The notes below the pieces were generated by a model. It saw nothing but the letters and a program-made list of their open reading frames with translations, had not been told where the DNA came from and ran no database searches. A stretch of DNA of 64,000 bases from Thiomicrorhabdus sp. (GTDB taxonomy: Bacteria > Pseudomonadota > Gammaproteobacteria > Thiomicrospirales > Thiomicrospiraceae), in contig NZ_CAXXLT010000001.1 of assembly GCF_963677875.2 (NCBI RefSeq), positions 139,838-203,837 on the forward strand, read 5' to 3'. Shown here piece by piece: positions 1 to 59,944 of this stretch. Numbering within the stretch: position 1 is the first letter of the stretch; every line of letters starts with the position of its first letter. The translations under genes were made by a program, and so were the position numbers.

Positions 1-188
1 TGAGCATGTCTTTCCCATTGCTGCTGGGCGGCTTCCTGTATTTGTTCAACTTTCACTCGATTCATATTGATAACCCTGCTGGTAAGTTTTTTATTTTTAT
101 AAGAATTCGCATTATAAAATCAGTTGTGGCAAATTACTACTGCAAAACCGTGATGAGAAGGCTTGGCTCTCACCAGCGAACCTTACCG

Positions 189-1679
189 CTAAAATTTGAA
201 TTTATTTAATTTCTTTCGCTCGCTTGATGAGGGCAGATTCAGTGCTTCTCTATATTTTGCGATGGTTCGCCGTGCGACAGAAATCCCTTTATCTTCAAGA
301 AGTTGCATCAGTTTGCTGTCACTCAAAGGTTTTTTGGGGTCTTCTTCATCAATCAGAGCTTTGATATGGGCTTTGATTGCGATGGCCGACTGATCGGCAC
401 TGCCGTATTGACTGACACCGCTTGAGAAGAAATATTTCAATTCAAAGGTACCACGGGGAGTCTGAATGTACTTCTGATTGGTTGCGCGCGAAATGGTTGA
501 TTCATGCAAATCGAGGTGTTCGGCAACTTCACGCAGAACCAAAGGCTGCATTGCCTGTTCGCCTTCCTCAAAAAAACGCTGCTGTTTTTCGACAATGAAT
601 TTTCCGACCTTAAGAAGGGTTTCCCCTCGGCTGTGAATGCTTTTGATTAATCCCTTGGCTTCGGCCAATTGTTCTTTGATTTTTTTGGATTCGTTTGAAT
701 CCTGCACCTGACTGGCAAGATCGACGTAGGCTGCATTGACGGCCAAACGAGGAAAAGCATCGGCATTCAATTCGACAATCCAACCATCCTGTCGGTTGCG
801 TCTCAACCTTAAATCCGGAACGACAACTTCGGTTTGCGTTGATGAAAAAGTTCGACCTGGCCGAGGATTCAACGATTGAATCAATTTTAAAATATGGTGC
901 AGCTCTTCGTCATTCAGAGCGTACATTTTCTTGATTCGCTTGTGATCCTGATAGGTAAGCCAATCAAAATGTTCTTTGATTAACTGCTTTGCTGTGACAA
1001 CGAAAGGCGTGCTTTTAACGGCGGATAGCTGCAAGAGTAGTGATTCCTGAAGATCTCTGGCACCCACACCGGTTGGTTCAAATTGTTGAATGGTTCCAAG
1101 AACCTCTTTCAACTCCTCAAGAGTGATGCCCAGTTCCTCTTCATTCTCCTGAATGGTAGCGAGCAGTTGCGGCAAGGGCGACTCCAGATAACCTTCATCA
1201 TTGATATCATCGATCAGATAGGGGGCAAGAAGCTGTTGTCTTTCCGTCCATGGATAAATATCCGATTGCCAATAAAGGTGGTCGTGCAAAGATTTTTCGG
1301 AAGCCGTGTAGGTATCAGCGCTGACATAATCGGCGGAGCTGCTTTGGCTCGATAAATTTGTATGATCGGCAAACACTTCATCCCATTGGCAGTCGAGCTC
1401 AAGTTCTTCGCTTATTTTGCTGGCCTGTTCAATATCGAGAGGCGCCGTTTCGGCATCATTATCGACAGGGGACTCGGATTCGGATTCTGTATTGCTTTCC
1501 CCAGACAGTTCTTCGTTATCGTCGTAGACCTCAAGCATGAAGTTGGTTTCCAAGGTTGATTCAATGGTCTGCTGAACTTCAAGCGCAGAGTACTGCAATA
1601 TTTTAATAGACTGCTGCAATTGCGGGGTAAGCTTCAACTGCTGGCCGATATTTATTTGTAAACCGGGCATTAAGGCCAT
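189..1679 (-). CDS. rpoN: RNA polymerase sigma-54 factor
   Basis: 496-aa ORF. N-terminal region I LKLTPQLQQSIKILQYS, acidic region II, C-terminal HTH and RpoN box ARRTIAKYRE. Confidence 0.95.
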   Translation of the reverse strand: MALMPGLQINIGQQLKLTPQLQQSIKILQYSALEVQQTIESTLETNFMLEVYDDNEELSGESNTESESESPVDNDAETAPLDIEQASKISEELELDCQWDEVFADHTNLSSQSSSADYVSADTYTASEKSLHDHLYWQSDIYPWTERQQLLAPYLIDDINDEGYLESPLPQLLATIQENEEELGITLEELKEVLGTIQQFEPTGVGARDLQESLLLQLSAVKSTPFVVTAKQLIKEHFDWLTYQDHKRIKKMYALNDEELHHILKLIQSLNPRPGRTFSSTQTEVVVPDLRLRRNRQDGWIVELNADAFPRLAVNAAYVDLASQVQDSNESKKIKEQLAEAKGLIKSIHSRGETLLKVGKFIVEKQQRFFEEGEQAMQPLVLREVAEHLDLHESTISRATNQKYIQTPRGTFELKYFFSSGVSQYGSADQSAIAIKAHIKALIDEEDPKKPLSDSKLMQLLEDKGISVARRTIAKYREALNLPSSSERKKLNKFKF

Positions 1680-1976
1680 TTAACAAAGCTCCACTTAAAT
1701 GGAATAAGATTTTGAAATAGTAAAAAAAAGGAATATCGCTATAATAACCTAAGCCAAACGGGCGGGTCCGATGCGAGCTTTTCCAGGTTGCTGGTCAGCG
1801 TAGAGGTTTAAGAATGGACTTAAAACTTCACAGCGCTAACTTAAAACTTTATTGTAACCTAACGTTACAACATGTTAAATCACCCAGTGGTGCAAAAAAT
1901 GCTTGCAAAAGGGGAAGAGTCGATTATTCAACCCCTGTCGGATGAAAGATAATAGAGAAAATAAGAGAGGAATTTC

Positions 1977-2420
1977 ATGTCGATTAAAGAAACGGCTCAC
2001 GAAATTGTAGATGGTCTGGCAGATGATGCAACGTGGAATGATCTGGTAAGAGCGCTGTATAAAGAGAAAAAAATCACTCTGGGGATGACCGATCTTGAAG
2101 TTGTGAAATCTGAACTCAGTGATGCTGAAATCAGCACGATTGTTGCACGCATTCAGTCTTCAAGCTCACAACCGGATGATATGCGCAATACCCGAAACTA
2201 CAAGCCGGGGAATGCCGCTACGGTTGGAATGGTTGCCGGGGTTATTGCTGTTTTGTTTGCACTGGTATTCCCGCCAATTTCATGGGTAGCCGTTCCGGTG
2301 GCCATTGTAGCCGGGTTTATTGGAATGCAGCGTAAAGAAGAAAAATCCTGGGTGCCGGTGTTGCTGGGTCTGGTTGCGATTATTCCGTTCATTGAACTAA
2401 TTTTGGAAACTGCTCAATAG
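1977..2420 (+). CDS. hypothetical membrane protein (soluble N-terminal domain plus C-terminal hydrophobic helices)
   Basis: 147-aa ORF with GAGAGG upstream of the ATG. Residues ~80-145 form 2-3 hydrophobic helices (AATVGMVAGVIAVLFALVF, VAVPVAIVAGFIGM, WVPVLLGLVAIIPFI). No family recognised with confidence. Confidence 0.6.
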   Translation: MSIKETAHEIVDGLADDATWNDLVRALYKEKKITLGMTDLEVVKSELSDAEISTIVARIQSSSSQPDDMRNTRNYKPGNAATVGMVAGVIAVLFALVFPPISWVAVPVAIVAGFIGMQRKEEKSWVPVLLGLVAIIPFIELILETAQ

Positions 2421-2442
2421 TTCAACAGAGAGCAGGAAAATC

Positions 2443-2468
2443 AAAAAAGCGCAGTCAAGCTGCGCTTT
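2443..2468. terminator. hairpin between convergent genes (Rho-independent terminator)
   Basis: GCGCAG-tcaag-CTGCGC stem, preceded by A6 and followed by TTTCG. On the minus strand it is followed by T6, so it serves at least the 94-aa minus-strand gene. Confidence 0.55.
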
Positions 2469-2527
2469 CGCGTCGAAAAAAATTTGCAAACCTCTTACTT
2501 CTTTCAGAGAAGTTTCTAAAAACCAAA

Positions 2528-2812
2528 TTAAGTCAAATCGGCAATATTTGCGTGACTCTGTTTAAACAGATATTGATCTTTAATTTCATTAGGAATCTCC
2601 TGTTTCCATTCTAAACCATCTTCCTTTACCATCAGTTGCCATTCATCATGGGTAATTTCATGCTCGTCGCCGCTATCTGGATTGTAGATGGTGAGATAGG
2701 TGAAATCGCTTTCCTGGGGATCGGAAACGTCCATGACCAAAATCGCGGCCCCGACATATTCGCCCATAGTTACTTGATAGATTCCTGTTTTGGTATTTGA
2801 TCCCATCGTCAT
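2528..2812 (-). CDS. hypothetical protein (94 aa, acidic)
   Basis: ORF with GGAGG about 9 nt upstream of the ATG at 2812. No recognisable motif. Confidence 0.55.
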   Translation of the reverse strand: MTMGSNTKTGIYQVTMGEYVGAAILVMDVSDPQESDFTYLTIYNPDSGDEHEITHDEWQLMVKEDGLEWKQEIPNEIKDQYLFKQSHANIADLT

Positions 2813-3018
2813 AGCTTCATGCCTCCAGTGTAATTATTGCTGGTGATTAGCTTACCTTAAGGAGCGTTTCAGAGATAGTGATTATTAAAGAGTTAATAAT
2901 TCGTTATTAAGCAATGAGTTTTTATGCGTTTTTGCATTCCGGTCGTTTGCTATCGACGATAAAGGGCCATAATCACTGGTATCGTGATTGGAGATGGCGA
3001 AACTCTCCTTCTTCATTT

Positions 3019-3046
3019 AATTCGCATAATGTATATTATGTTAAAT
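3019..3046 (+). other. dif: dif chromosome dimer resolution site (XerC arm - 6-bp centre - XerD arm)
   Basis: AATTCGCATAA TGTATA TTATGTTAAAT versus E. coli dif GGTGCGCATAA TGTATA TTATGTTAAAT. Matches are 8/11 in the XerC arm, 6/6 in the centre and 11/11 in the XerD arm (25/28). It lies in a 409-bp AT-rich non-coding gap. Confidence 0.85.
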
Positions 3047-3221
3047 TTAGTAAATTATTAATTTACTTTCATAATCTTGGCGCGCGCCTTCTCCATGCCT
3101 CGCCTGTTTCTTTTTAATGCAGGTGGTATCCGTTTCAGGTTTAAGACTAAAGCTGTTCAGATTTTATTGCGGAATAAAGCGCTATGGGATCTATTGTGCG
3201 GTGCTTCTTTTTACTCGTTTT

Positions 3222-3587
3222 CTACTCGTTCAAAAGTTTGTGGATATTTTCAGGTGGTCGTCCCAGGACGGCTTTGCTACCAATCACGATAATTGGTCTT
3301 TCAATCAATTTGGGATTTTGAGTGAGGATTTCCAGCCATTCTTGTTCGTCGATATCGTTTCTCGTATGTAATCCGAGTTCCTTGTACAGAGCTTCTTTTT
3401 TTCTAACCAACTCACTTGGTTGCATTTCGAGCATCTTACAGAGTTGCTGCAGCGTTGCCAGATCAGGAGTTTTCTCCAGATAACGAATTTCTTCGATTTC
3501 ACTGTCTTGAAATTTTTCTTGTAGCAATTTGTAGGATTCCCGGCTTTTTGAACAGCGTGGGTTATGATAGAGCGTAACGGTTTTCAT
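3222..3587 (-). CDS. arsC: arsenate reductase (glutaredoxin-coupled ArsC family)
   Basis: 121 aa. It aligns along its length with R773/E. coli ArsC: YHNPRCSKSR (catalytic Cys), plus Arg residues at the positions corresponding to R60, R94 (ERPII) and R107 (GRPPE). Confidence 0.78.
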   Translation of the reverse strand: MKTVTLYHNPRCSKSRESYKLLQEKFQDSEIEEIRYLEKTPDLATLQQLCKMLEMQPSELVRKKEALYKELGLHTRNDIDEQEWLEILTQNPKLIERPIIVIGSKAVLGRPPENIHKLLNE

Positions 3588-3629
3588 TGTGAATCCTTAG
3601 CTTCAATTCTTTTATTAACTTTTATTAAC

Positions 3630-3848
3630 TTATTGATTTTCTATCTTTTCTTCTGCTTCAGCGTCCAAGCGACTATTGAGTGCTTGTTCAACGGCTTCAA
3701 TTCGCTGCTTGCATAATTGATAGGCTTTGGTGGCTTCGTCTACCATCGGAATCAGCTCGTCGATGTCTATTTCATTGTTGTTGGAGAGTTTTTGCGCGAT
3801 TGTCTGCAAAGTTCGGTAATTTTCTTTAAAGCTTTCCGGTTGACTCAT
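3630..3848 (-). CDS. xseB: exodeoxyribonuclease VII small subunit
   Basis: 72-aa helical protein with a typical XseB N-terminus (SFKENYRTLQTIAQKLSNNNEIDIDELIPMVDEATKAYQLCKQRIE). Its ATG overlaps the xseA stop (ATGA). Confidence 0.9.
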   Translation of the reverse strand: MSQPESFKENYRTLQTIAQKLSNNNEIDIDELIPMVDEATKAYQLCKQRIEAVEQALNSRLDAEAEEKIENQ

Positions 3849-5413
3849 ATCAGTTCCTGTTGTGCTTGAACATCGACTTGAATTTTGCCGTCTACAAACT
3901 CAATGAGCAGGCTTTTTTCTTTCAATGCTTGTTGTTTTTGTGTTATCGGTTGTTGTTTCGAATCGTAAATCAATGCGAATCCCCTTTCAAGCTGGCTTTG
4001 CGGCCCGGCACTAAGGATGAATCGAATCCATTGACGAATGCTTTCTTTATTCTGTTTTAATTGCCATTGGCTTTGCTGGTGAACCCTCAGCAGATGGTCG
4101 TCCAATTGCTGTTTTTTCCACTCCAGTTTTGGTTTGGTTTGGGACGCAATCGACGCGTAGTATTGATTGAGAGCCTGCTTGCGCAATTTGATGCTGATCT
4201 CGGTTTCGTGTTTTACCCGTTCGATCATCGGTTGAAGCCGATTCTTCCATTGCGCCAGTTGCAGTTGGTTATTGCGGCTGATTTGATAGTGAAGTGTTTG
4301 CAGGCTCTGAGTTGTGTGTTTTAATTTCAGTTGGCTTTGAGCGCTGATTTGCTGCCAATTGTATCTGGCTTTTTGAGCCTGTTGCACAATACTTTGTCGT
4401 ATGAATGCGATGACTTTACTTGGGGTGTCAAAGTGTCTGTTGGCAACTTCATCAAGAATTGTCAGATCCCTTTCATGGCCGATTCCGGTCAATACTGGCA
4501 GCGTTGCCAGACAGATCTGCTTTGCGACCGATTCGATATTCAGGTTGTTCAGATCAAGCTTCGAACCACCACCGCGAATGATGACTAATGCATCAAACGG
4601 ATGTTTGTGATGGATGGCTTGCACCGCTTCAAAACTGGTGAGAAGATCCCGCTCGGCATTGCTCCCCTGAAAGCTGCTGTAGAAGTAGGTAAAGTCGCAT
4701 AGATGATGCCGCTGTAACCGTTTTGCATCCGCTCTGAAATCTCCCAGACCCGCTGCTTCTGGCGGTGCGATGACCGCAATTCGAAAAAAATCGTCAGCAA
4801 GCTGAAGCAGGCGATTGTTTTCAAAAATGCCAGCAGTTTTAAGCGCTTGACGAATTTTTTGCTGCTGCTGCTGTAACTCTCCAAGCGTATAACTTGGATC
4901 GATTTCCTGAATATTTAAGGAAAAGCCGTAAATTTCATGGAAATTTACTTCGGCCTGACAGAGTATTTTCAGGCCTTTCTCCAGAGAATTTCCGGTCGCT
5001 TCGTGGAAACGTTTAGCAATCGATTCCGCTTGTGATTTCCAGATAGTTGCTCGGCAACTTGCCAAAACCTTCCCATGCTGGTCGCTCTCGCTTAATTCGA
5101 GGTAAAGATGCCCACGGTTGTTGTTCAGGTTGGCTATTTCCGCCGTCAGCCAAAGTGTTTGAGAAAATTGTTGGCGCAGAGCCAGCTGAACCTTGCGCAT
5201 GACCATAGACAGACTGCTCGCTTCGGGGGTCTGCTGATCCGGCGTAATTTCAAGGGTGTGTTGCGATTGGTTTTTTGGCAGCCATTGTGAAAACTGTTCT
5301 TTTTGATCCGCCAGATGTTCAGGGATATACCAGAGCTTACTCACGGCATCCCAGCGTGCGCCAAGTGATTTAGCCTGATCTTTTTCCGGGAAAGGTACTT
5401 GTAGAAAAATCAC
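3845..5413 (-). CDS. xseA: exodeoxyribonuclease VII large subunit with N-terminal DUF5710-like extension
   Basis: OB-fold plus catalytic core (WLTAEIANLNNNRGHLYLELSE, LVIIRGGGSKLDL, GIGHERD). The start is placed at GTG 5413, which overlaps the dusA stop (GTGA). The ORF-track start at 5524 is a TTG lying 115 nt inside dusA. The start is uncertain. Confidence 0.85.
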   Translation of the reverse strand: MIFLQVPFPEKDQAKSLGARWDAVSKLWYIPEHLADQKEQFSQWLPKNQSQHTLEITPDQQTPEASSLSMVMRKVQLALRQQFSQTLWLTAEIANLNNNRGHLYLELSESDQHGKVLASCRATIWKSQAESIAKRFHEATGNSLEKGLKILCQAEVNFHEIYGFSLNIQEIDPSYTLGELQQQQQKIRQALKTAGIFENNRLLQLADDFFRIAVIAPPEAAGLGDFRADAKRLQRHHLCDFTYFYSSFQGSNAERDLLTSFEAVQAIHHKHPFDALVIIRGGGSKLDLNNLNIESVAKQICLATLPVLTGIGHERDLTILDEVANRHFDTPSKVIAFIRQSIVQQAQKARYNWQQISAQSQLKLKHTTQSLQTLHYQISRNNQLQLAQWKNRLQPMIERVKHETEISIKLRKQALNQYYASIASQTKPKLEWKKQQLDDHLLRVHQQSQWQLKQNKESIRQWIRFILSAGPQSQLERGFALIYDSKQQPITQKQQALKEKSLLIEFVDGKIQVDVQAQQELI

Positions 5414-6444
5414 GCTCTGAGTTCCATTCTTTCCTGTTCTTGACGAACTTTTTGATAGGCCTGCTGAATAACCTCGAGACTCGCATCGCTTTTGTATGCG
5501 TTCTCTGACAGGTGGCGACGCCAAAGTCTGCCTCCGGGTAATCCATGAAACAATCCTAACATATGCCGGGTAATCTGGATCAATTTCCCTCCGGTCTGTA
5601 AATGGTCTTCAATATAAGGAAGCATGTTTTCGATCACCTTCTCTCTGCTGATCGGGGCATGATTTTGCCCGTAATAGAGCGAGTCGACTTCTGACAGAAT
5701 GTAAGGACGTTCATAAGCGGCACGCCCCAGCATAAAACCATCCAAGGCGTCCAAACCGTTGTACTCGTTCAAGTGCAAAAGTCCCTGCTGCAGATTTTGT
5801 AATCCGCCGTTAATTGCAATCGGGATGTGGGGAAAAGCCTGTTTCATGCGATGAACCAGATCGTAATTCAATGGCGGCACTTCACGATTATCTTTCGGGG
5901 ACAAACCTTGCAGCCATGCCTTGCGAGCGTGAATGATTACCCCGTCGACACCGACCTGGTCGACGGTTTGCAACAGCTCGAAAATCGATTCTTCTTCGTT
6001 CTGATCATCGATGCCGATACGGCACTTTACCGTAACCGGAATTTTTACACTCTTTTTCATCGCGTTTACATTTTCGGCAACCAGTTTCGGGTGTGCCATC
6101 AGGCAGGCTCCGATCATATTGTTTTGAACTCTCTCGCTTGGACAGCCGACATTAAGGTTGATTTCGCTATAGCCCCACTCTTCACCAAGGGCAGCGCATT
6201 TGGCCAGATCCGAACTGTTGCTGCCGCCAAGTTGAAGAACCACTGGCGCTTCATCTTTGTTGTGGCCGAGAAAACGTGGCAAATTTTCTCCGTAAATAAT
6301 GGCTCCGGTTGTGACCATTTCGGAATACAGCCAGGCTTTTCGACTTAACTGACGGTGAAAATAACGACAATGGCGGTCGGTCCAGTCGAGCATGGGAGCA
6401 ACTGAAAAATGTTGGGCGCTGGATTCTTGAGAAGGTGTTTGCAT
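5410..6444 (-). CDS. dusA: tRNA-dihydrouridine(20/20a) synthase
   Basis: 344 aa. APMLDWTDRHCRYFHRQLS and NLNVGCPS motifs; full-length DusA-like. Confidence 0.92.
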   Translation of the reverse strand: MQTPSQESSAQHFSVAPMLDWTDRHCRYFHRQLSRKAWLYSEMVTTGAIIYGENLPRFLGHNKDEAPVVLQLGGSNSSDLAKCAALGEEWGYSEINLNVGCPSERVQNNMIGACLMAHPKLVAENVNAMKKSVKIPVTVKCRIGIDDQNEEESIFELLQTVDQVGVDGVIIHARKAWLQGLSPKDNREVPPLNYDLVHRMKQAFPHIPIAINGGLQNLQQGLLHLNEYNGLDALDGFMLGRAAYERPYILSEVDSLYYGQNHAPISREKVIENMLPYIEDHLQTGGKLIQITRHMLGLFHGLPGGRLWRRHLSENAYKSDASLEVIQQAYQKVRQEQERMELRA

Positions 6445-6526
6445 AAAATCGATTTAAAAACGGTTAAAAGTCCCTATTTTAACGATTTTTGCATATTGAA
6501 GCAGTAAGCTTTCAGCGACAACATAA

Positions 6527-6567
6527 TAAAAAAAACCGCTAAACCCGGGGGGCATTAGCGGTTTTTG
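6527..6567 (-). terminator. Rho-independent terminator of the outer-membrane protein gene
   Basis: AACCGCTAA / TTAGCGGTT 9-bp stem followed on the minus strand by T8. Confidence 0.65.
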
Positions 6568-6593
6568 CGGTTAAAATGCTTGGAAGGCAAATT

Positions 6594-7136
6594 TTAGAAA
6601 ACGAATTCGACTCCACCGCCAACACCTGAAATAGAGAGGTCATTTTCGTCGAAAAGGTTGGTGTAATTAACAACAAACGCAAAATTTTTGGTAAATTTCA
6701 GCTTGCCGTCAAATCCCCAGGACATGGATTCATCGGCGTATTTGCTTTTCTGACCGTTTGTTTTGTCTTTTCCCGTTGCATACAGCTTTGAATAGCCGAT
6801 CTTACCGTTAATGGAAAAACGCTCAAAATCGGCAAAAGTTCCAACCAGATAAGCGCTGTAGTACTCATCGATTTTGACGTTTTCGTTAGTGCTGCTTGAA
6901 CTGCCTTCATCGGTTCCTGTACCTGCGGCAAACTCAACACCGAAAAACGGATTTCCGCGGAAACCTAAAGCAACACCTGCAGAAGGTGTCGCAAAAGAAT
7001 TTGCACCTTTTGATTCCCATTCAAAGTGATTGTAAGTTACGTCAAAATAGGCGCTTGGAAAAGTCCCGGCTTGCGCGTTGACGGATGCGGAAAGAACGGC
7101 AGCCGCCGCCAAAGATGTCAAAGCAATTTTCTTCAT
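6594..7136 (-). CDS. small outer-membrane beta-barrel protein
   Basis: 180 aa. Signal peptide MKKIALTSLAAAAVLSASVNAQA, alternating beta-strand pattern, C-terminal GVEFVF with terminal Phe. Confidence 0.75.
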   Translation of the reverse strand: MKKIALTSLAAAAVLSASVNAQAGTFPSAYFDVTYNHFEWESKGANSFATPSAGVALGFRGNPFFGVEFAAGTGTDEGSSSSTNENVKIDEYYSAYLVGTFADFERFSINGKIGYSKLYATGKDKTNGQKSKYADESMSWGFDGKLKFTKNFAFVVNYTNLFDENDLSISGVGGGVEFVF

Positions 7137-7234
7137 GGTGTTTCCCTTAATGATCTAAAACAGTGTAAATATTATTTTAATTCTCGAATATTTCGATTCA
7201 GAATGATGTTTTATAAATCGAAATGATAGGTGTT

Positions 7235-7256
7235 CTGAGTGTAAGGCTTATCCTAA
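7235..7256 (+). repeat. left copy of an imperfect ~22-bp direct repeat
   Basis: CTGAGTGTAAGGCTTATCCTAA. It matches 7741-7762 at 19 of 23 aligned columns (two 1-nt gaps). Confidence 0.35.
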
Positions 7257-7343
7257 GCGATCTGCGTATTTGCCACAATAGGAAAGAAAGCAATTTTATG
7301 ATGCGAGACAGAGAAATGACGGTGTGAAAAAATGACAAGCCAA

Positions 7344-7375
7344 CTCCCAAATCTGCGTCCGGGCAGATTTGGGAG
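7344..7375 (-). terminator. strong hairpin downstream of the 79-aa gene (probable terminator)
   Basis: Perfect 13-bp stem CTCCCAAATCTGC / GCAGATTTGGGAG with a 6-nt loop. On the minus strand the T-run is only distal (TTGGCTTGTCATTTTTT). Confidence 0.45.
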
Positions 7376-7394
7376 TAAAAATGGGAAATTTCGT

Positions 7395-7634
7395 TTAAAT
7401 GATGATTCCTTCAGAACCCTGAAAATCCCCTTCACTCTTGGTTGCGACCGAAGCGCCGGCAGATTCCAGCAATGCACGCGCATAAGCATTACGGGCTGTT
7501 TGCATGATCGACAATTCCGCCTGTAGGTCGGCAATTTTTGCTTCGGTGACCTGCAGTGCTTTTAACTGCCCTTTTGCTTCTTCTGTTAGGTTGTCTGTAT
7601 CCAGTTCGTGACCGGCAAGGGTAAATTTAGCCAT
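7395..7634 (-). CDS. small conserved hypothetical coiled-coil protein (79 aa)
   Basis: ORF with AGAGGTGGAAA upstream of the ATG. Sequence begins MAKFTLAGHELDTDNLTEEAKGQLKALQ, followed by a heptad-like helix. It resembles a small gammaproteobacterial DUF family, but I cannot name it with certainty. Confidence 0.6.
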   Translation of the reverse strand: MAKFTLAGHELDTDNLTEEAKGQLKALQVTEAKIADLQAELSIMQTARNAYARALLESAGASVATKSEGDFQGSEGIII

Positions 7635-7740
7635 TTTCCACCTCTTTATAACTTGAATTATTCATCGTAGGCCTTACATATAGATCGGCCAGACGGGGCG
7701 AGCCTTTAAAATTTTTTTGCTGACTTCATTGTGTAAGGAT

Positions 7741-7762
7741 CTGATGTGTGGGCTTATCTTAA
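7741..7762 (+). repeat. right copy of the imperfect ~22-bp direct repeat
   Basis: CTGATGTGTGGGCTTATCTTAA, immediately preceded by GTGTAAGG (7731-7738), which also occurs in the left copy. Confidence 0.35.
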
Positions 7763-7915
7763 CAGTTCAATAAAAGTAAAAACAAGAATCGAACCGACAA
7801 AAGCGATCCAGATTATTATCCCATCGCATGAAAATCGAGTTTTTACGTTGTTTTATGCACTGAATCTTGATGAAATAAAGAAAATATATAAGTAGCAGAC
7901 AGAGCAAGTCAGGCT

Positions 7916-10111
7916 ATGCAACAGGCCCGTCAGAGGAAGACGACTCAAACAATGACAATACAAGCGTTATACAAACAACTTTTCGGCGACATTCAGCGTG
8001 ATGCAAAGCAGGTCGAACGTTACACCAAAGCCTGCGAACTGGCAATTGAAGCACAGGGGCTGCCTGAAAAAAGCATCGTGAGAAGTACCGATGTCGCCAT
8101 AATCCTGGCCGATCTGAATATTGACGAAGAAACCTTGATCGCAACACTGTTAAGCGATGGTAATCTGGAAGAAGCTTACAGTGACGACTTTATCCGTTCC
8201 GGCTTCGGAGCCTCGACATCCGATCTTGTTCATGGAATTCGTAAACTGAATCAGTTCAAAGAATTTGATGTCGAACGCAAGAGTGATGCCGTGCAAAACG
8301 AGCGATTGCGGCAGATGCTGCTGGCAATGACTTCCGATATTCGAATTATGATCGTCAAACTCGCCTACCGGGTCGCACGATTACGTCATCTGAAATACGA
8401 GGATGAAAATGTTCGCCACCTGATTGCCGCAGAAACCGAGCTGATTTTCTCTCCGCTGGCAAACCGTCTTGGTATTGCGCAGCTGAAATGGGAGCTGGAA
8501 GATCTTTCCTTCCGTTATCTGCATCCACAGAAGTACAAAGAAATTGCCAGTTTATTACAGTCCAAGCGTACCGAACGTGAGCTGTATATTCAGGACATGA
8601 TCAAGCAACTGGAAGCGCTGCTTGCTAAGGAAGGTATCAAAGCTAAAATCAGCGGACGCCCCAAACACATCTACAGCATCTGGAAAAAGATGCAGCGTAA
8701 AAATCTGACGATTGACGAACTCTTCGATCTTCGGGCGGTGCGAATTTATGTGGATAGCGTCACGACCTGTTATGAGGCTCTTGGCTTGATCCACAGCAGC
8801 TGGAATTACGTTAAGCAGGAGTTTGACGATTACATTGCTACCCCGAAAGAAAATGGCTATCAATCCATTCATACGGTTATTATCGGCCCGGGCGGTCAGA
8901 CCGTTGAGATACAGATTCGCACCCATGAAATGCATCATAACGCGGAATACGGTATTGCCGCTCACTGGCGCTATAAGGAAGGCGGCAAAAGCTATGACAG
9001 TAACCTGGAGCGAAGCATTGCAAATGTTCGACAGTTGCTGGAAAACTCCGACGATCCCGATGTGTTCAAAGAGATCAGTACAGAGCTGCAAAGCCAGAAT
9101 ATCTTTGTTATGACGCCGACCAACCAGATCATTACTTTGCGCCAGGGATCCACCCCGCTTGATTTTGCCTACAATATTCATACCGAGCTTGGCCACAGCT
9201 GCCGCGGAGCCAAAGTAAATGGTCGAATTCAGCCGCTGAGTCACCTATTGAAAACCGGCGATAAAGTGGAAATTTTATCGGTTAAAAATGGTCAGCCTTC
9301 GCGAAACTGGCTGAATCCCAACCTTGGATACTTAACCAGCAGTAGCGCGCGCAACAAGGTTCGCAGTTGGTTTAACAAGCAGAATCGTAGTGAAAACATT
9401 GAGGCCGGTGAAGCTCTGTATCATAGAGAAATCAAACGTCTGCATGCCGAGGAAATTCACATTCAGGACGTGGTTGCCCGCTTTAAACTTGAAAACAGCG
9501 AAATACTCTTTGAAGAGCTGGGTAAAGGACGCATCAATGATCGGCAGCTCAATAATGCTATTCAGACGTTACTGAAGCCCGAAAAACACACTTTCGAGCA
9601 AACACAGCGTTCGATCAGGTTCAGAGAACCGAGTCTTGAAGGTGATATGCGGAGCGCTCGTGCCTATGTTGTCGGCGCCAGTAATCTGGCAACCAATCTG
9701 GCGCCCTGCTGTACTCCGCACCCGGGTGACGACATTGTCGGTTATGTCACTCGTGGACGCGGAATTACCGTTCATACACGGGAATGTGCCAATGTTCTTA
9801 ACCTGAATCACAATGAGCAACAAAGACTGATTGAAGTCGTTTGGGATAAAGAGCTGGCGGAGAATCCGCTTTATGATGCCGAGCTGCATGTTCTGGCCTT
9901 TGATCGCAAAGGATTGTTACGTGATGTAATGAGCGTTTTGACCGACATGGACATTAACTTGATTGCTTCGCAGACGGAAACCGATCAGCAGGAACGCAGC
10001 GTCACCATGAAGTTGACCATCGAACTCAGTGCCGGAATGAATCTTGGGGATTTACTGGATCGGATTGAAGTGGTTCAGAACGTGGAATCCGCCAGCATTA
10101 AAACTTTGTAA
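7916..10111 (+). CDS. relA: GTP pyrophosphokinase (RelA, (p)ppGpp synthetase I)
   Basis: 731 aa. Degenerate HD region (ATLLSDGNLEE instead of HD), synthetase motifs (DLRAVRIYV, GYQSIHTVI, EIQIRTHEMH, AAHWRYKEG), and TGS and ACT-like C-terminal domains. An alternative start is Met-13 (7952). Confidence 0.92.
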   Translation: MQQARQRKTTQTMTIQALYKQLFGDIQRDAKQVERYTKACELAIEAQGLPEKSIVRSTDVAIILADLNIDEETLIATLLSDGNLEEAYSDDFIRSGFGASTSDLVHGIRKLNQFKEFDVERKSDAVQNERLRQMLLAMTSDIRIMIVKLAYRVARLRHLKYEDENVRHLIAAETELIFSPLANRLGIAQLKWELEDLSFRYLHPQKYKEIASLLQSKRTERELYIQDMIKQLEALLAKEGIKAKISGRPKHIYSIWKKMQRKNLTIDELFDLRAVRIYVDSVTTCYEALGLIHSSWNYVKQEFDDYIATPKENGYQSIHTVIIGPGGQTVEIQIRTHEMHHNAEYGIAAHWRYKEGGKSYDSNLERSIANVRQLLENSDDPDVFKEISTELQSQNIFVMTPTNQIITLRQGSTPLDFAYNIHTELGHSCRGAKVNGRIQPLSHLLKTGDKVEILSVKNGQPSRNWLNPNLGYLTSSSARNKVRSWFNKQNRSENIEAGEALYHREIKRLHAEEIHIQDVVARFKLENSEILFEELGKGRINDRQLNNAIQTLLKPEKHTFEQTQRSIRFREPSLEGDMRSARAYVVGASNLATNLAPCCTPHPGDDIVGYVTRGRGITVHTRECANVLNLNHNEQQRLIEVVWDKELAENPLYDAELHVLAFDRKGLLRDVMSVLTDMDINLIASQTETDQQERSVTMKLTIELSAGMNLGDLLDRIEVVQNVESASIKTL

Positions 10112-10160
10112 GCGGGGTTCGATGCCCCTTCCCTGGGGCATAAATTTCAGAATACTCAGG

Positions 10161-10196
10161 CGCCGGAGTTCAACTAACTCCGGCGTTTTGTTTTTT
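10161..10196 (+). terminator. Rho-independent terminator of relA
   Basis: CGCCGGAGTT-caact-AACTCCGGCG 10-bp stem followed by TTTTGTTTTTT. Confidence 0.8.
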
Positions 10197-10231
10197 GACA
10201 GACTTGGAAGACGGACAAAATCTTCAGGTAT

Positions 10232-10264
10232 AAAAAAACCCGCTATAACCGAAGGTATAGCGGG
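10232..10264 (-). terminator. Rho-independent terminator of the tRNA operon
   Basis: CCCGCTATA(A)CC / GGTATAGCGGG stem followed on the minus strand by T7, directly after the last tRNA. Confidence 0.75.
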
Positions 10265-10272
10265 TTTTGAAT

Positions 10273-10348
10273 TGGCGTCCCGTAGGGGAGTCGAACCCCT
10301 GTTACAGCCGTGAAAGGGCCGTGTCCTAGGCCTCTAGACGAACGGGAC
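10273..10348 (-). tRNA. tRNA-Glu (UUC)
   Basis: The reverse complement GTCCCGTTCGTCTAGAGGCCTAGGACACGGCCCTTTCACGGCTGTAACAGGGGTTCGACTCCCCTACGGGACGCCA is near-identical to E. coli tRNA-Glu. The CCA end is encoded. Confidence 0.96.
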
Positions 10349-10459
10349 GTTTTTGATAAATCAAAACGACTTTATCGAGATTTGAATGAAAAATCAGAGA
10401 TTTTCATTCCGGCTTGACGATTGATTGTAAATGCCTAGGTCAATCGACACACCAAAATT

Positions 10460-10534
10460 TGGAGCGGGAAACGAGGATCGAACTCGCGACCCCAACCTTG
10501 GCAAGGTTGTGCTCTACCGCTGAGCTATTCCCGC
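10460..10534 (-). tRNA. tRNA-Gly (GCC)
   Basis: Reverse complement GCGGGAATAGCTCAGCGGTAGAGCACAACCTTGCCAAGGTTGGGGTCGCGAGTTCGATCCTCGTTTCCCGCTCCA. Anticodon loop is CTTGCCAAG. Confidence 0.96.
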
Positions 10535-10540
10535 ATAGTG

Positions 10541-10616
10541 TGGCGTCCCGTAGGGGAGTCGAACCCCTGTTACAGCCGTGAAAGGGCCGTGTCCTAGGCC
10601 TCTAGACGAACGGGAC
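10541..10616 (-). tRNA. tRNA-Glu (UUC), second identical copy
   Basis: 76/76 identical to 10273-10348. Confidence 0.96.
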
Positions 10617-10698
10617 ACACATTGTGATTTTAATCTCTTAAAATCGATATTCGGCAATTGAATGATCCGGCCTAGTTTGGATCTTGCCTGTCAGCTTT

Positions 10699-10774
10699 TG
10701 GTGGAGCTAAGCGGGATCGAACCGCTGACCTCAACACTGCCAGTGTTGCGCTCTCCCAGCTGAGCTATAGCCCC
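10699..10774 (-). tRNA. tRNA-Ala (GGC)
   Basis: Reverse complement GGGGCTATAGCTCAGCTGGGAGAGCGCAACACTGGCAGTGTTGAGGTCAGCGGTTCGATCCCGCTTAGCTCCACCA. It carries the G3:U70 identity pair and anticodon GGC. Confidence 0.96.
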
Positions 10775-10792
10775 TCGAGCTGATGGGTGCGT

Positions 10793-10820
10793 ATTATATA
10801 GAGTTGACGACTACCGTCAA
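10793..10820 (-). promoter_or_regulatory. sigma-70 promoter of the tRNA operon
   Basis: The minus strand reads TTGACG-16 nt-TATAAT followed by the GC-rich discriminator ACGCACCC. An A/T-tract UP-like region lies upstream (10821-10860). The predicted TSS is ~10 nt before tRNA-Ala. Confidence 0.65.
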
Positions 10821-10912
10821 GCATTAAATGTAAAAAAATCGTCATTTTTTCGCTTTTTTTCGGCGCTCCGAACATTGGACTTTCTAAGTCCTTGTTTTTG
10901 CAAAAATCGCCG

Positions 10913-10940
10913 ATAAAAAAAGGGGATCACTCCCCTTTTC
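10913..10940 (-). terminator. Rho-independent terminator of gltX
   Basis: AGGGGA-tcac-TCCCCT stem followed on the minus strand by T7. Confidence 0.65.
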
Positions 10941-10992
10941 CTACACAATGCGCCATCTCATTACAGATCGATTTGGCGGCGTTTTAAATTAT

Positions 10993-14914: not shown

Positions 14915-16720
14915 GTGATTTATATGACTTTCGATACGATCCACTACGAACTGGAACTACTTGATCCGCATGCCCACCTTTTTGAAGTGAAATTGACGAT
15001 TGCCCATCCAGAGCAACCTTCGCAAACCGTTTCCCTGCCAAACTGGATTCCCGGCAGCTATCTGATTCGCGATTTTTCCAAACACTTGATCGATCTGCAA
15101 GCCTTCGATGCGCAGGGCAATTCAGTTGATCTGACAGCTTTGGATAAGTCTTCCTGGAAATTCAGTTGTGATCGTGCAACAACACTGACTTATCAAGTAT
15201 ATGCCTGGGATTTGTCGGTGCGCGGGGCTTACTTTGACGATCAAAGAGCTTTTTTTAACGGGACTTCGGTTTTTCTGCAAACCGAGGGGCAGAGCGACCT
15301 GCCTCACACCCTGCACCTGAAGACAAACCGTTTTACCCGGGAAAAATGCTGGTGCGCCGCCAGTGGAATGCCGCAGATCAATGTTGATGCCAGTGGTTTC
15401 GGCAAGTACCAGACCGAAAACTATGCGGCCTTAATTGATTACCCATTTGAAATCGGTACGCATCAAACGCTCGATTTCGAAGCCTGTAATATTCCGCATA
15501 AAATGGTAATTTCCGGAATTTTCGAATGTGACTTCGAACGCCTGAAACAGGATTTAATTAAAATTTGCGAAACCGAAATCAACCTTTTTGGTTCCGCTCC
15601 GATGGACAGCTACCTGTTTCAGCTTTTTGTCACCGGCAACGACTATGGTGGCCTCGAACACCGCAATTCGACCGCGTTGATTTGCAGTCGAGACGACCTC
15701 CCCTATATCGGGATGCAGGAAGCAAGCGATGGCTATGTCCGTTTGCTGGAACTTTGCAGTCACGAGTATTTTCACAGCTGGAATGTCAAGAGCATTCAAC
15801 CGCAAGCGTTTCAGAATGCCGATTTGCAACAGCCGCAATACACGCACCAGCTTTGGTGGTTTGAAGGCGTTACTTCTTATTACGATGCTTTGATTTTACT
15901 GCGAGCAAACGTGATTAATGAAGCACGCTACCTGCAGCTGCTCGGCGAACAGATGACACGAGTCTATCGCATGCCGGGTAGATTCAGGCAATCGGTTGCC
16001 GATTCCAGCTGGTTTACCTGGACCAAATTTTATCAACAGGACGAAAATGCTCCGAATGCAATCATCAGCTATTACACTAAAGGCAGTTTGATCGCTCTCG
16101 CTCTGGACCTGTTTTTGCGCCAACACTCCAATGGCGATTTCACGCTTGATGATATTCTGCGCCACCTTTGGGAACAGTACGGTCGAAACGGCATTTCCCT
16201 GCAGGAAAAACAGATCGAATCGCTATGCTCTGAACTCAGCGGTTACGACTTTCAATCGTTTTTTGACCAATACCTCTATGACACAAAAGACCTGCCTTTT
16301 GAAGAAATACTGCGTGAATTCGGCTATCGTTTTGAGCGACGTCCATACCAAGGGCTGAACGACCTTGGCGGTACTTCCGGAACTTCCCTGCTGAAAATGT
16401 CTCTGGGTATGAATGTGAAAGCAGAAGTTCAAGGGCTTCGGGTAACGCATGTCTGGAATGATTCCGCAGCTCATAAAGCCGGTTTGTCGGCCGGTGACCT
16501 TCTTATTGCTCTGGACAAGCTGAAAATTGACTCAATTGCCCAGCTTGAACAGAAATTGCAACGCGCTCGAAACGGCGTGCAATGGCACTGCCATTATTTC
16601 CGGCGCGATGAATTGAGAGAAGCTCTGTTGCTTCCCGAAGCCTCAGTATCGGATCGAGTCGTCATCAGCCGAATGAATGCGCAGGAAATGTCGGAAAAAG
16701 GAAGCTTATCATGGATTTAA
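14915..16720 (+). CDS. M61 family glycyl aminopeptidase with C-terminal PDZ domain
   Basis: 601 aa. Zinc motif SHEYFHSWN (HExxH) and a C-terminal PDZ-like segment (AAHKAGLSAGDLLIALD). The ORF-track start is GTG; ATG 14924 (MTFDTIHY) is an equally likely start. Confidence 0.88.
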   Translation: MIYMTFDTIHYELELLDPHAHLFEVKLTIAHPEQPSQTVSLPNWIPGSYLIRDFSKHLIDLQAFDAQGNSVDLTALDKSSWKFSCDRATTLTYQVYAWDLSVRGAYFDDQRAFFNGTSVFLQTEGQSDLPHTLHLKTNRFTREKCWCAASGMPQINVDASGFGKYQTENYAALIDYPFEIGTHQTLDFEACNIPHKMVISGIFECDFERLKQDLIKICETEINLFGSAPMDSYLFQLFVTGNDYGGLEHRNSTALICSRDDLPYIGMQEASDGYVRLLELCSHEYFHSWNVKSIQPQAFQNADLQQPQYTHQLWWFEGVTSYYDALILLRANVINEARYLQLLGEQMTRVYRMPGRFRQSVADSSWFTWTKFYQQDENAPNAIISYYTKGSLIALALDLFLRQHSNGDFTLDDILRHLWEQYGRNGISLQEKQIESLCSELSGYDFQSFFDQYLYDTKDLPFEEILREFGYRFERRPYQGLNDLGGTSGTSLLKMSLGMNVKAEVQGLRVTHVWNDSAAHKAGLSAGDLLIALDKLKIDSIAQLEQKLQRARNGVQWHCHYFRRDELREALLLPEASVSDRVVISRMNAQEMSEKGSLSWI

Positions 16721-43726: not shown

Positions 43727-44482
43727 TCATTGGCTGTCGGCCCATTTCCGCATCTGCGCCAGCATATCGTAATGGGTCAAATCGATTTTCATCGGCGTAA
43801 TCGAAGCGTAACCTTTTTCAACAGCTTCGAAATCCGTCCCTTCGCCGCTGTCTGCCGCTTCACCCGCCGGCCCTATCCAATAGATCGGCAAGCCTCGCGG
43901 ATCGGTTTGCCTGACGACTGGTTCCGAAGCATGGCGTCTTCCAAGGCGAGTCACCTTGACGCCCTTCAACTCGGCTAAGGGAATGTCGGGAACATTGATA
44001 TTGATAATCGTGTCCTGAGTCAAGGCCAGATCCGGAAGTACCTGCAAAAAATCCAGAACCACCTTGGCAGCCGTCGCAAAATGCACGTTACCACACAGCG
44101 ATACCGCAATCGAGGGTTTACCGAGAAAGCGTCCTTCCGTTGCCGCTGCAACCGTACCGGAATAGAGAACATCGTCGCCCATATTGGCTCCGGCATTAAT
44201 TCCGGAAATAACGATGTCCGGACGATAATCCAATCCGCCGTTAACCCCTAAATGCACGCAGTCAGTTGGCGTACCATTCAGGCTGTAAATCCGTTTTTCC
44301 GCGTCACGGCACTCGATTCGCAAGGGTTCCGAAAGCGTAAGGGAATTACTGGCGGCACTCCGATTGCGATCCGGAGCCATGACGACCAGTTCCCGGTAGG
44401 AAAATTCAGCTTGCAGCGTTGCAAAAAGAATTTGAATGCCCGGCGCCAAATAGCCGTCATCATTGGAGAGAAGGATTTTCAT
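43727..44482 (-). CDS. surE: 5'/3'-nucleotidase SurE
   Basis: 251 aa. [11 protein letters not shown]-terminus and [21 protein letters not shown]. Confidence 0.94.
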
Positions 44483-44568
44483 GGGGTAAACTATCTCATT
44501 ATTCCCGTAGTCAACCGATTGATTACGGGCCCGGTAAACAATCTTTTCAGAATTATATAGTGTTCATT

Positions 44569-45126
44569 ATGACAGATGAAGATAAATCCTTGTTTCTCGC
44601 AGAAATGCGCGACGTACGACCTTTAAAGAGTACGGATCGAATCCGAACCGATGATCCGTCGATACGCAAAAAACGTCAGGGACAAGAACTGCGGCGACTA
44701 CGCCGCAAACAGCAAAACGGCCATCAAGAACGGCTGAATTATCAGCTTGTGGATCGCGATGAATTTGTGGAACCGGTCAGCGCGCATCAATCCTTGATGT
44801 TTGCGCAAAAAGGCGTTCGTCTCCAAGACATCACTGCATTGAAAAAAGGCGAGTTTGCCCTTCAGGCTGAACTCGATCTGCACGGAGAAACACTGGAAAA
44901 TGCCGAAGTCAGGTTATTAGAGTTTATAAAAGCGTGTCTCATCGAAAAATTACGCTATGTCCGCATCATTCACGGCAAAGGGTATCATTCCGACCAGCAA
45001 CAGCCTTTATTAAAGAACATGGTCAATCGCCGCCTGCGATTATCCCCCTGGATACTTGCCTTCAGCAGTGCGCCGCAAAAAGACGGCGGTGCCGGCGCCG
45101 TCAACGCTCTGTTGAAAAAACAATAA
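44569..45126 (+). CDS. Smr domain protein
   Basis: 185 aa from ATG 44569. C-terminal Smr domain (LDLHGETLENA...IIHGKG). Confidence 0.8.
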   Translation: MTDEDKSLFLAEMRDVRPLKSTDRIRTDDPSIRKKRQGQELRRLRRKQQNGHQERLNYQLVDRDEFVEPVSAHQSLMFAQKGVRLQDITALKKGEFALQAELDLHGETLENAEVRLLEFIKACLIEKLRYVRIIHGKGYHSDQQQPLLKNMVNRRLRLSPWILAFSSAPQKDGGAGAVNALLKKQ

Positions 45127-57583: not shown

Positions 57584-59552
57584 TTATTTCACTTTCTCGG
57601 ATGACTTGTTCGTCAGCATTTTCAGAGCCAAATCGGCTTCATATACCCAGGGAAAATCCGGCAGACTGTCACGAATAACATTTCCGTATCCTTTGGTGGA
57701 TAACCGGGGATCGCACAACATCAGCACGCCACTGTCGCCTAGATCGCGAATCAGACGACCAGCCCCCTTGTTTCATGGCAATTACCGCTTCAGGTAATTG
57801 AAAATGCACAAAACCGTTTAAACCTTTTTCCTTCAAATAGGCTTCCCGTGCCTGAACGATCGGATCGTCAGGAGGTGCGAAAGGGATTCGATCTATGACA
57901 ACCAGCTTCAGAGCATCCCCTTTTACATCAACCCCTTCCCAGAAACTGCTGGTTCCAAGGAGAATCGCATGCTCACTCTCCTTGAAACGCTGTAAAAGAC
58001 TCAATTTTGGTAGATCCCCCTGAACCAGCAATTTGCCTTTCCAGTGGGCATGAAGAATCGCTTTTGCTTCCTGCATTGCCTTATGGCTGGTAAACAGCAT
58101 AAAGGCTCGCCCTTGCGCAGCCTTGAGAAGTGGCCAGGCCGCTCTCAAACAGATTTTGATGTAATCCGGATTACGCGGTTCCGGCAAGCCGATCGGATGA
58201 TAGATCAATCCCTGAGTTTGATAGTCAAACGGGCTGGCCCAATTCACGGTCCTGGCATCGTCAAGCCCCAAACGTTTGGCGAAATAGTCGAATTGCCCGC
58301 GGACACTCAGGGTCGCCGAGGTAAACAACCAGGCTCCACCAATTTCTTCTCTCTGTCGACTGAAAGCCGCAGCGACGTTCAATGGGGTTAAAAACAAGCG
58401 AAAGCGGGCTTGGGAAGATTCGATCCAGCGCACATTATTTTCCGACTGGCTGTTGTGCCACTCTTTTAACTGTACGGTAAATTCTTTGCAGCGCTTGTGA
58501 ACCGCACTCAATTGCTTTCCACGCTCCTCAACCGACTTCAAAGCATCGGTTACGGAATCCATGACTGCAAGCATGCGCTTGAACACCTTTTGAAAAGCCG
58601 TTTCGCTTTCCAGCTGCTTCCAGGTCCAGCGTTTTTCCCATTTACCGAGCGCTTGGTTCAGAGCCAGTAACTGATCGGCAATCTTATCCGCCAAATCGGA
58701 CAATTGTTTGGATTCCGGTGCTTCCAGACTTTGTGCCTGTTTGATATCACGCACCAGTTCTTCCAGTTGAGAGCGACTTAGAGAAAACCCCAAAAACTGG
58801 GCGGCAATATCCGGCAATTGATGCGCCTCGTCAAAGACATATACATCCGCTTCGGGAAGCAGCTCACCAAAACCCTGTTCTCGCAAAGCCAGATCCGCAC
58901 AGAACAGGTGATGATTGACTACCAGCACCTGAGCCTCTGCGGCTTTTTGTTTCGCCTGAGGATAAAAGCAACCGCCGTCAGCACTGCATTCGGCCGACTG
59001 GCAGAACTCCATTCTTGCCGAAACCTTGCGCCAGATCGGATCATCTTCAGCCACGGAATCCAGTTCCGAACGATCACCGATCAGGGTTTTGTCTTCAACC
59101 CATTCACGAATGTTCGCGAGCTTTTTCCAGTCCTCTCGGCTGTGCTGCTCGACCGTCTCCGCAATTTCCAAACGCTGCGGGCACACATAATTGTCTCGCC
59201 CTTTGAATAATCGCGCTTTAGCGGTTATGGAACAGGCTTTCATCAAAACCGGCAAATCTTTCTGAATAAGTTGTTCCTGCAAAGTTTTAGTCGCCGTAGA
59301 CAAAATGACTTTTTTTCCGGACAGGAGCGCAGGAATCAAATAGGCGAACGTTTTGCCGGTTCCGGTTCCGGCTTCGGCTAAAAGCGTCGCACCCTGTTCA
59401 ATCGTGTCGACAATCTCCAAAGCCATGTCAATCTGAGCGTCACGTGGTGCATACCCGGAGATGGCTTTCTCCAGAGTACCTCCCGCGCCCAATGCCTTTC
59501 GCACCGATTCCGCCAGCGTTTCACCGGATTTCTTTTTCTTCGCAGACTGCAT
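57584..59552 (-). pseudogene. DinG/YoaA-family Fe-S ATP-dependent DNA helicase interrupted by a 1-nt insertion
   Basis: Walker A AGTGTGKT, DEAH (VFDEAHQL) and four Fe-S cysteines. After ...LPEAVIAMKQG the frame is lost at C5 (57763-57767; G5 on the coding strand) and stops at 57669. Deleting one base restores AGRLIRDLGDSGVLMLCDPRL... down to a TAA at 57584. Confidence 0.85.
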
Positions 59553-59748: not shown

Positions 59749-59818
59749 CCGCGACTTCAAATATTTGAACCTAAGTCAGGTTGGTGTTGAATACCTGGCC
59801 ACTAAATGGATATATCTA

Positions 59819-59944
59819 ATGAAAATTCTATCTTCTTTGAAATCCGCTAAGACACGTCATAAAGACTGTCAAGTTGTTAAACGTCGCGGAAAAGTATACG
59901 TTATCAACAAAACAAACCCTAAGTTCAAAGCTCGTCAGCGTTAA
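59819..59944 (+). CDS. rpmJ: 50S ribosomal protein L36, zinc-independent (YkgO/type B) form
   Basis: It is missing from the ORF track (41 aa). The translation [41 protein letters not shown] is collinear with E. coli YkgO. It is followed by a strong terminator. Confidence 0.9.

Follow-up and report, generated by a model that had tools for sequence, protein, structure and literature searches.

A predicted chromosomal dif site near the replication terminus of a Thiomicrorhabdus-like gammaproteobacterium

Described dif sites and the place of this one among them

A dif site has been predicted in Thiomicrospira (Hydrogenovibrio) crunogena XCL-2 (TGTTCGCATAATGTATATTATGTTAAAT), where the global skew maximum is 6,934 bp away, with a gene annotated as 'arsenate reductase' at 166 bp and a hypothetical protein gene at 168 bp, and the same genome encodes XerC (297 aa) and XerD (317 aa), both of which are located away from dif (Carnoy & Roten 2009, Table S1, PMC2731167). 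The window, by which we mean the whole stretch of 64,000 nucleotides that was analyzed here, carries at positions 3019-3046 a 28-mer that agrees with the T. crunogena site at 26 of 28 positions, the differences being confined to positions 1 and 2, the two outermost bases of the XerC arm. The two organisms are of the same family, and in both the site is intergenic and has an arsenate reductase gene as its neighbor at about 170 bp, with a skew maximum, global in T. crunogena and local in the window, at a distance of about 7 kb. They differ in that the window represents another genus-level lineage, nearest to Thiomicrorhabdus. Specifically, among named organisms it is a Thiomicrorhabdus sp. that has the ArsC protein closest to the one encoded in the window. 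The only match of E. coli genomes to the region is a 58-bp fragment of arsC, and as judged from these sequence matches the region is one without a close enterobacterial relative.

The experimentally characterized XerCD/FtsK site of E. coli K-12, dif (GGTGCGCATAATGTATATTATGTTAAAT), has the same 11-6-11 arrangement with the same center and the same XerD arm, and it too is intergenic. The E. coli site lies at the terminus, with polar motifs that orient FtsK converging on it. One difference lies in these motifs, as strict GGGNAGGG is rare in the window and only the broader GNGNAGGG is clearly polar. To our knowledge, no Tus/Ter system is to be expected in the Thiomicrorhabdus lineage. The published dif sites of Pseudomonas aeruginosa PAO1 (GATTCG...), Neisseria meningitidis MC58 (AGTTCG...) and Thiobacillus denitrificans (ACTTCG...) each agree with the 28-mer at 27 of 28 positions, differing by one outer XerC-arm base each and lying in unrelated gene neighborhoods, and the exact 28-mer of the window is found in several Pseudomonas and Neisseria species. 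The XerC/D sites of plasmids and phages (Acinetobacter pdif, cer/psi, and attP/attL of CTXphi) are used by the same recombinases and have a similar XerD arm, with 80-90% likeness over the core, but these are carried by mobile replicons, are often multi-copy or paired round cargo and have diverged centers, whereas the site in the window is single, chromosomal and syntenic.

Recognition of the site gives an annotation to an AT-rich spacer that would have none otherwise and shows which end of the contig is at the terminus, which is of use in the assignment of replichores, the orientation of the assembly and the reading of strand bias. It brings no new biology, in that prediction of dif by the same logic is routine and the same site was published in 2009 for a member of the family, in the same gene context. 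Mildly useful in addition are the family-wide gene order at the terminus and a small conserved extension outside the XerD arm.

The 28-mer and the spacer that contains it

The site, its parts and the genes on either side of it are as follows.

3019-3046, plus strand: predicted dif site of 28 bp, AATTCGCATAATGTATATTATGTTAAAT, composed as AATTCGCATAA-TGTATA-TTATGTTAAAT; 25 of 28 positions as in E. coli dif
3019-3029, plus strand: predicted XerC-binding arm, AATTCGCATAA, assigned by alignment to E. coli dif
3030-3035, plus strand: central region TGTATA, predicted site of strand exchange, same as in E. coli dif
3036-3046, plus strand: predicted XerD-binding arm, TTATGTTAAAT, same as in E. coli dif and invariant in the lineage
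2813-3221, no strand: AT-rich intergenic region hosting dif, 409 bp, ORF-free, GC 0.37 against 0.476 for the window
2528-2812, minus strand: gene for a 94-aa hypothetical protein (ORF call), flanking dif
3222-3587, minus strand: ArsC-family gene (Pfam PF03960), flanking dif

The original prediction gave the agreement with E. coli dif as 25 of 28 positions, including all six central and all eleven XerD-arm bases, and alignment gives the same result; the reference sequence that it quoted for E. coli is also the right one (Carnoy & Roten 2009, Table 1, PMC2731167). Mismatches occur at positions 1, 2 and 4 alone, all toward the outer end of the XerC arm, such that the 11-6-11 architecture is present at 3019-3046 with a perfect central region and XerD arm. 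When up to three mismatches to E. coli dif are allowed, the window yields this locus alone, none of 100 shuffles of the window gave any such match, and the next-best dif-like sequence in the 64 kb has 10 mismatches, equal to what shuffled sequence yields. The G+C content of the site is 0.179 compared to 0.476 for the window, and 20 of its 28 positions equal those of its own reverse complement, with the inner ends of the arms, ATAA and TTAT, able to pair. Membership was judged by the criteria for dif of Carnoy & Roten (2009, PMC2731167), with which the site agrees in its architecture, non-coding location, low G+C and partly palindromic inner arms, and this supports the original prediction that the 28-mer is a canonical dif. 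We propose that positions 3019-3046 are, almost certainly, the chromosomal dif of a Thiomicrorhabdus-like gammaproteobacterium, with the function assigned by homology. The call is correct but ordinary, as it concerns a known kind of feature in a gene position that was already predicted in a relative.

The site is non-coding, in that it lies between two minus-strand genes and is overlapped only by short, unconserved ORFs on the plus strand. The spacer can be compared with the orthologous gap in a Thiomicrorhabdus sp. locus on a 2.71-Mb contig, herein termed L039, whose GltX, RelA and RpoN proteins are 94%, 90% and 91% identical to those of the window. For the most part the spacer is diverged or deleted between the two, and what is kept is the dif block together with the segment that adjoins the start of the 94-aa gene. 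Three plus-strand ORFs (2914-3117, 3077-3292 and 3117-3371) were considered as genes and rejected, as the corresponding gap of L039 has no gene call and the spacer lacks conservation. An Rfam scan returned the four tRNAs of the window only, with no RNA family in or near the gap, and a promoter and terminator scan of 2700-3300 gave results no better than chance, with one weak promoter-like match near the site, at 2910-2881 on the minus strand.

The spacer had been described as the largest non-coding gap of the window. This is roughly right but cannot be stated with certainty, since the interval 7137-7915 is larger if the 93-aa ORF within it, which has no Pfam hit, is spurious. The stretch 10112-10992 holds the four tRNAs, and two gaps of more than 409 bp in the crude ORF call hold a Smr-like and an L36-like ORF. 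Both of these were missed by the longest-ORF call and were read by eye from the translations: the first (44419-45126, plus strand) is likely a Smr-domain-like ORF between surE and ftsB, and the second (59765-59944, plus strand) is a short ORF that resembles a non-zinc paralogue of ribosomal protein L36 (YkgO-like).

By Pfam, the approximately 60 ORFs of the window have the ordinary housekeeping content of a chromosome. They include an rpoN-like sigma-54 gene, xseA/xseB, dusA, relA/spoT, gltX, ligA, zipA, dksA and recJ, together with hom, thrC, eno, pyrG, tilS, accA, rnhB and lpxA/B. The same Pfam search found no integrase, replication, plasmid or phage genes in the 64-kb window, and no xerC, xerD or ftsK within it.

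Terminus signals in the window, its relatives and other species

At a replication terminus, the GC skew turns from positive to negative whichever strand it is read along. In the window this change is spread over the following zone.

1-10715, no strand: zone in which the GC skew changes sign, with the peak of cumulative G-C at 10715

The cumulative maximum is thus 7.7 kb to the right of the site, and only 3 kb of the window lie to the left of it. The skew is +0.047 in 1-3018, +0.021 in 3047-10000 (65 excess G in 3,147 G+C, which is not significant) and -0.070 in 10001-64000. Among published genomes the distance from dif to the skew peak has a median of 7,277 bp and quartiles of 2,056 and 21,446 bp, with E. 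coli dif at 39 kb from the peak and other genomes reaching 40-200 kb (Carnoy & Roten 2009, PMC2731167), and an offset of 7.7 kb is therefore typical when set against that median. To the right of the site, 41 of 60 ORFs (~68%) in our own call are on the minus strand and so are oriented toward dif, which is close to the 41 of 61 counted in the original prediction, and all four tRNAs are on the minus strand, as had been claimed. The skew itself is about -0.03 to -0.06 near the terminus (10001-36000) and about -0.07 to -0.15 further out (36001-64000), and this steepening follows a shift from mixed gene orientation to genes that are almost all on the minus strand. Since the skew tracks gene orientation, part of it reflects the strand of transcription and not replication alone.

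The occurrence of GGGAAGGG at 10126-10133 on the minus strand had also been offered in support of a terminus. The octamer does exist, as does a second one at 57933-57940, also on the minus strand, but the strict KOPS motif GGGNAGGG is under-represented in the window (2 compared to 4.8 expected by chance) and this item therefore has no weight alone. Better support comes from the broader KOPS-type motif GNGNAGGG, which occurs to the right of the site 15 times on the minus strand, pointing at dif, and once on the plus strand, at 15110, while the 3-kb left arm contains none.

7428, 10126, 11645, 12465, 15309, 25636, 32858 and 34506, minus strand: starts of KOPS-type GNGNAGGG, directed leftward to dif
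43618, 43838, 57368, 57933, 61355, 62784 and 63618, minus strand: remaining starts of the same motif, the whole set spanning 7428-63625

As a control for composition, motifs made of five G and one A are 70% on the minus strand in the right arm, and against this background the 15 of 16 directed toward the site give p = 0.026. The bias of GNGNAGGG in the window is hence supportive, not strong. A further motif, NGGNAGGG, is found to the right of the site 11 times on the minus strand and not at all on the plus strand, and from such counts, together with the scarcity of GGGNAGGG, it may be that the FtsK-orienting motif of this lineage differs from the E. coli consensus at the first positions. A de novo search of the right arm for skewed 6- to 8-mers gave top hits that reflect codon and gene-strand bias; it should be noted that a right arm of 61 kb is too little sequence for the discovery of a lineage-specific KOPS motif.

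The relatives of the window provide more extensive data on both sides of the site. The window genes that are used for this comparison, in addition to those given above, are the following.

189-1679, minus strand: complete sigma-54 (rpoN) gene, adjoining the terminus together with small hypothetical genes
3630-3848, minus strand: xseB, exonuclease VII small subunit, directly after xseA in an operon-like arrangement
3845-5524, minus strand: xseA, exonuclease VII large subunit, with an N-terminal DUF5710 domain

The gene order of L039 is that of the window, namely gltX, relA, an outer membrane protein (OMP) gene, dusA, xseA, xseB, arsC, the gap, a 92-aa gene, a 147-aa gene and rpoN, and the gap between arsC and the 92-aa gene, which is the orthologue of the 94-aa gene, contains the identical 28-mer. 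A scan of metagenomes with the sigma-54 protein gave 11 more orthologous loci, with RpoN proteins that are 60-72% identical, and in 10 of these 11 a dif lies in the interval between arsC and rpoN, making 11 of 12 relatives when L039 is included. The site is 140-370 bp downstream of arsC in nine of the metagenomic loci and about 1.4 kb downstream in one (L049). Hence, the terminus gene order dusA-xseAB-arsC-dif-rpoN is conserved in the family. Within the lineage the site varies only at positions 1, 2 and 7, in the XerC arm, and at position 13, the second central base, which is G or A; the XerD arm is invariant in all 11 site-bearing relatives and in T. crunogena. A site that is kept so strictly throughout the lineage would imply that the proteins that bind it are present as well. 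In published dif sites, differences within species concentrate at the outer positions of the XerC arm, and the second central base is the most variable position of the central region (Carnoy & Roten 2009, PMC2731167), and the variable positions 1-2 and 13 of the lineage are among those published as variable for true dif.

The ten dif-bearing metagenomic loci also extend into the flank that is cut short in the window, by 3-12 kb in general and by 1.8 kb in L045. In all ten, the skew is higher on the arsC side than on the rpoN side, and in seven of the ten the local maximum of the cumulative skew falls within 300-500 bp of dif. When L039 and nine of these loci are pooled, the 2 kb next to dif toward arsC have a skew of +0.034 and the 2 kb toward rpoN one of -0.037, the change of sign falling exactly at dif and the signs holding out to about 10 kb. 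The polarity of GNGNAGGG is likewise inverted in the lineage relatives, with 10 plus and 5 minus copies on one side compared to 8 plus and 28 minus copies on the other (Fisher p = 0.004). We consider it very likely, if somewhat less assured than the identity of the site itself, that the replication terminus is no more than a few kb from the left end of the window. The original prediction that the window spans the terminus is supported mostly by way of the relatives, through the pooled skew flip, the syntenic loci and T. crunogena, as the window has only 3 kb to the left of the site.

The remaining metagenomic locus (L048; Ga0316210_10001, a 1.44-Mb contig, with an RpoN of 63% identity) is devoid of dif-like sites in the 10 kb around rpoN; the block of arsC, xse and dusA is absent near rpoN and the GC skew is monotonic. 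This indicates that a rearrangement separated rpoN from the terminus, and the locus serves as a natural negative control for the association of dif with the skew.

Beyond the family, the exact 28-mer is present as a single copy in the genome of each of 38 other species, the taxa including Pseudomonas, Neisseria, Halomonas, Pasteurellaceae, Thorsellia, Aliidiomarina and methanotrophs. At these loci the similarity to the window is limited to 28-44 bp, with no homology in the flanks, so that it is a site that is conserved rather than a shared gene or element. The skew is higher to the left of the 28-mer than to the right in 21 of the 23 loci that could be used, which are those with at least 1.5 kb on both sides (binomial p = 3e-5). 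Copies of GNGNAGGG converge on it, with 127 directed toward the 28-mer and 18 away (61 plus and 10 minus in the left flanks, 8 plus and 66 minus in the right flanks). The fall in skew together with this convergence shows that the 28-mer marks replichore junctions in other genomes.

Alternative readings, proposed mechanism and features beside the site

The site could be a genuine XerCD-dif in a chromosome whose forks meet elsewhere, as would follow from a recent inversion or large insertion, in which case the window would not span the terminus. The cumulative skew maximum of the window at 10715, with only 3 kb of sequence to the left of the site, is compatible with this, as are the published genomes in which dif and the skew peak are as much as 40-200 kb apart (PMC2731167) and the rearranged neighborhood in L048. 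Nevertheless, in the pool of 10 syntenic relatives, whose gene order the window keeps, the sign of the skew changes exactly at dif, the window itself is positive in 1-10000 and negative in 10001-64000 as expected at a terminus, and in T. crunogena, where dif has the same gene neighborhood, it is 6.9 kb away from the maximum of the global skew (PMC2731167), and we regard a meeting point of the forks elsewhere as improbable. Less probable again is that the 28-mer belongs to a mobile element, be it the remnant of a CTXphi-type attachment site, a plasmid cer/psi site or the border of a pdif module. Sites for XerC/D with 80-90% identity are common on plasmids of Acinetobacter, Klebsiella and others, and also occur on CTXphi records where they are annotated attL/attB, but the center in the window is the chromosomal 6-bp TGTATA, a second dif-like site is absent from the window, where the next-best match has 10 mismatches as in shuffled sequence, and the surroundings are housekeeping genes (gltX, relA, ligA, zipA, eno, pyrG and lpxA/B) with no integrase, replication or phage genes among them. 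Moreover, the site is bordered on both sides by conserved genes of the chromosome, whose order is shared by 11 relatives, which means that nothing has been inserted.

The individual kinds of mobile site were also considered and rejected. A CTXphi-type or pdif arrangement has paired sites that bracket non-syntenic DNA, while here there is one site and its flanks are syntenic with those of 11 relatives. A cer/psi site would lie on a plasmid and have some 180 bp of accessory sequence adjoining the XerC arm; here the neighbors are housekeeping genes of a chromosome, and the flank on the XerC side is unconserved even in the closest relative. That the 28-mer has no relation to Xer at all and is an AT-rich palindromic promoter or operator of the neighboring genes, or a chance match, is scarcely credible. 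It does lie in AT-rich spacer DNA on the upstream side of the 94-aa gene, with the weak promoter-like match at 2910-2881 (minus strand) nearby, but the promoter scan yields no more than chance, 0 of 100 shuffles match, the identical 28 bp recur in 38 unrelated gene contexts where the skew falls (21 of 23 usable loci), and the variation in relatives fits the published pattern for dif, namely the outer XerC arm and the second central base.

We return to the site as the chromosomal dif, for which the mechanism put forward here is inferred by analogy with the E. coli and Vibrio system. XerC would bind the left arm AATTCGCATAA (3019-3029) and XerD the right arm TTATGTTAAAT (3036-3046). When homologous recombination has joined the two sister chromosomes as a dimer, FtsK, the DNA translocase of the septum, would pump the DNA, in a direction set by polar motifs of the GNGNAGGG type, until XerCD bound at dif is met. 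FtsK would then activate XerD, which would carry out the first exchange of strands over the 6-bp TGTATA, and XerC would resolve the Holliday junction such that two monomers are restored. The site would mark the junction of the two replication arms.

There may be some conservation beyond the 28-mer on the XerD side, at the following positions.

3047-3052, plus strand: tentative extension outside the XerD arm, TTAGTA, compared to a cross-species consensus nAnGTA

Among 40 loci with the identical 28-mer, A at position +2 (25 of 40), G at +4 (18 of 40) and T at +5 (27 of 40) exceed the background of the flanks after Bonferroni correction (p = 1e-5, 2.5e-4 and 5e-7, respectively), the counts being not fully independent as some of the loci are phylogenetically related. 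The window matches the consensus at +4 and +5, not at +2, and the flank on the XerC side shows a weak bias only across the same 40 loci. Conservation outside the XerD arm is the sole item that is not textbook knowledge, and it is offered here as a lead rather than a finding. On this alignment of flanks it seems rather unlikely that the functional site extends a few bases past the 28-mer on the XerD side. Such an extension could be an unrecognized contact, either of XerD or, at the point where FtsK halts, of FtsK-gamma, or it could be the scar of repeated Xer-mediated integration and excision. Following the XerD arm there is also an AT-only palindrome, AGTAAATTATTAATTTACT, at 3052-3070, which is partly conserved in L039 as GTAATTTGATTGATTTAC.

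Several features of the adjacent genes may be mentioned. The TTG start listed for xseA overlaps dusA by 115 nt, the protein of the relative has 522 aa, and the listed start is probably too far upstream. The rpoN gene lies about 0.4-1.3 kb from dif, a distance that is kept in 11 of 12 relatives, and in L039 the usual lptB, hpf and ptsN genes are not among the neighbors of rpoN. The two genes that flank dif are more diverged from L039 than those around them, with 65% identity for ArsC and 75% for the 94-aa protein compared to 88% for XseB, 88% for the 147-aa protein, 91% for RpoN, 90% for RelA and 94% for GltX. The low values for ArsC and the 94-aa protein suggest a locally faster divergence, or perhaps the replacement of an allele, right at the terminus.
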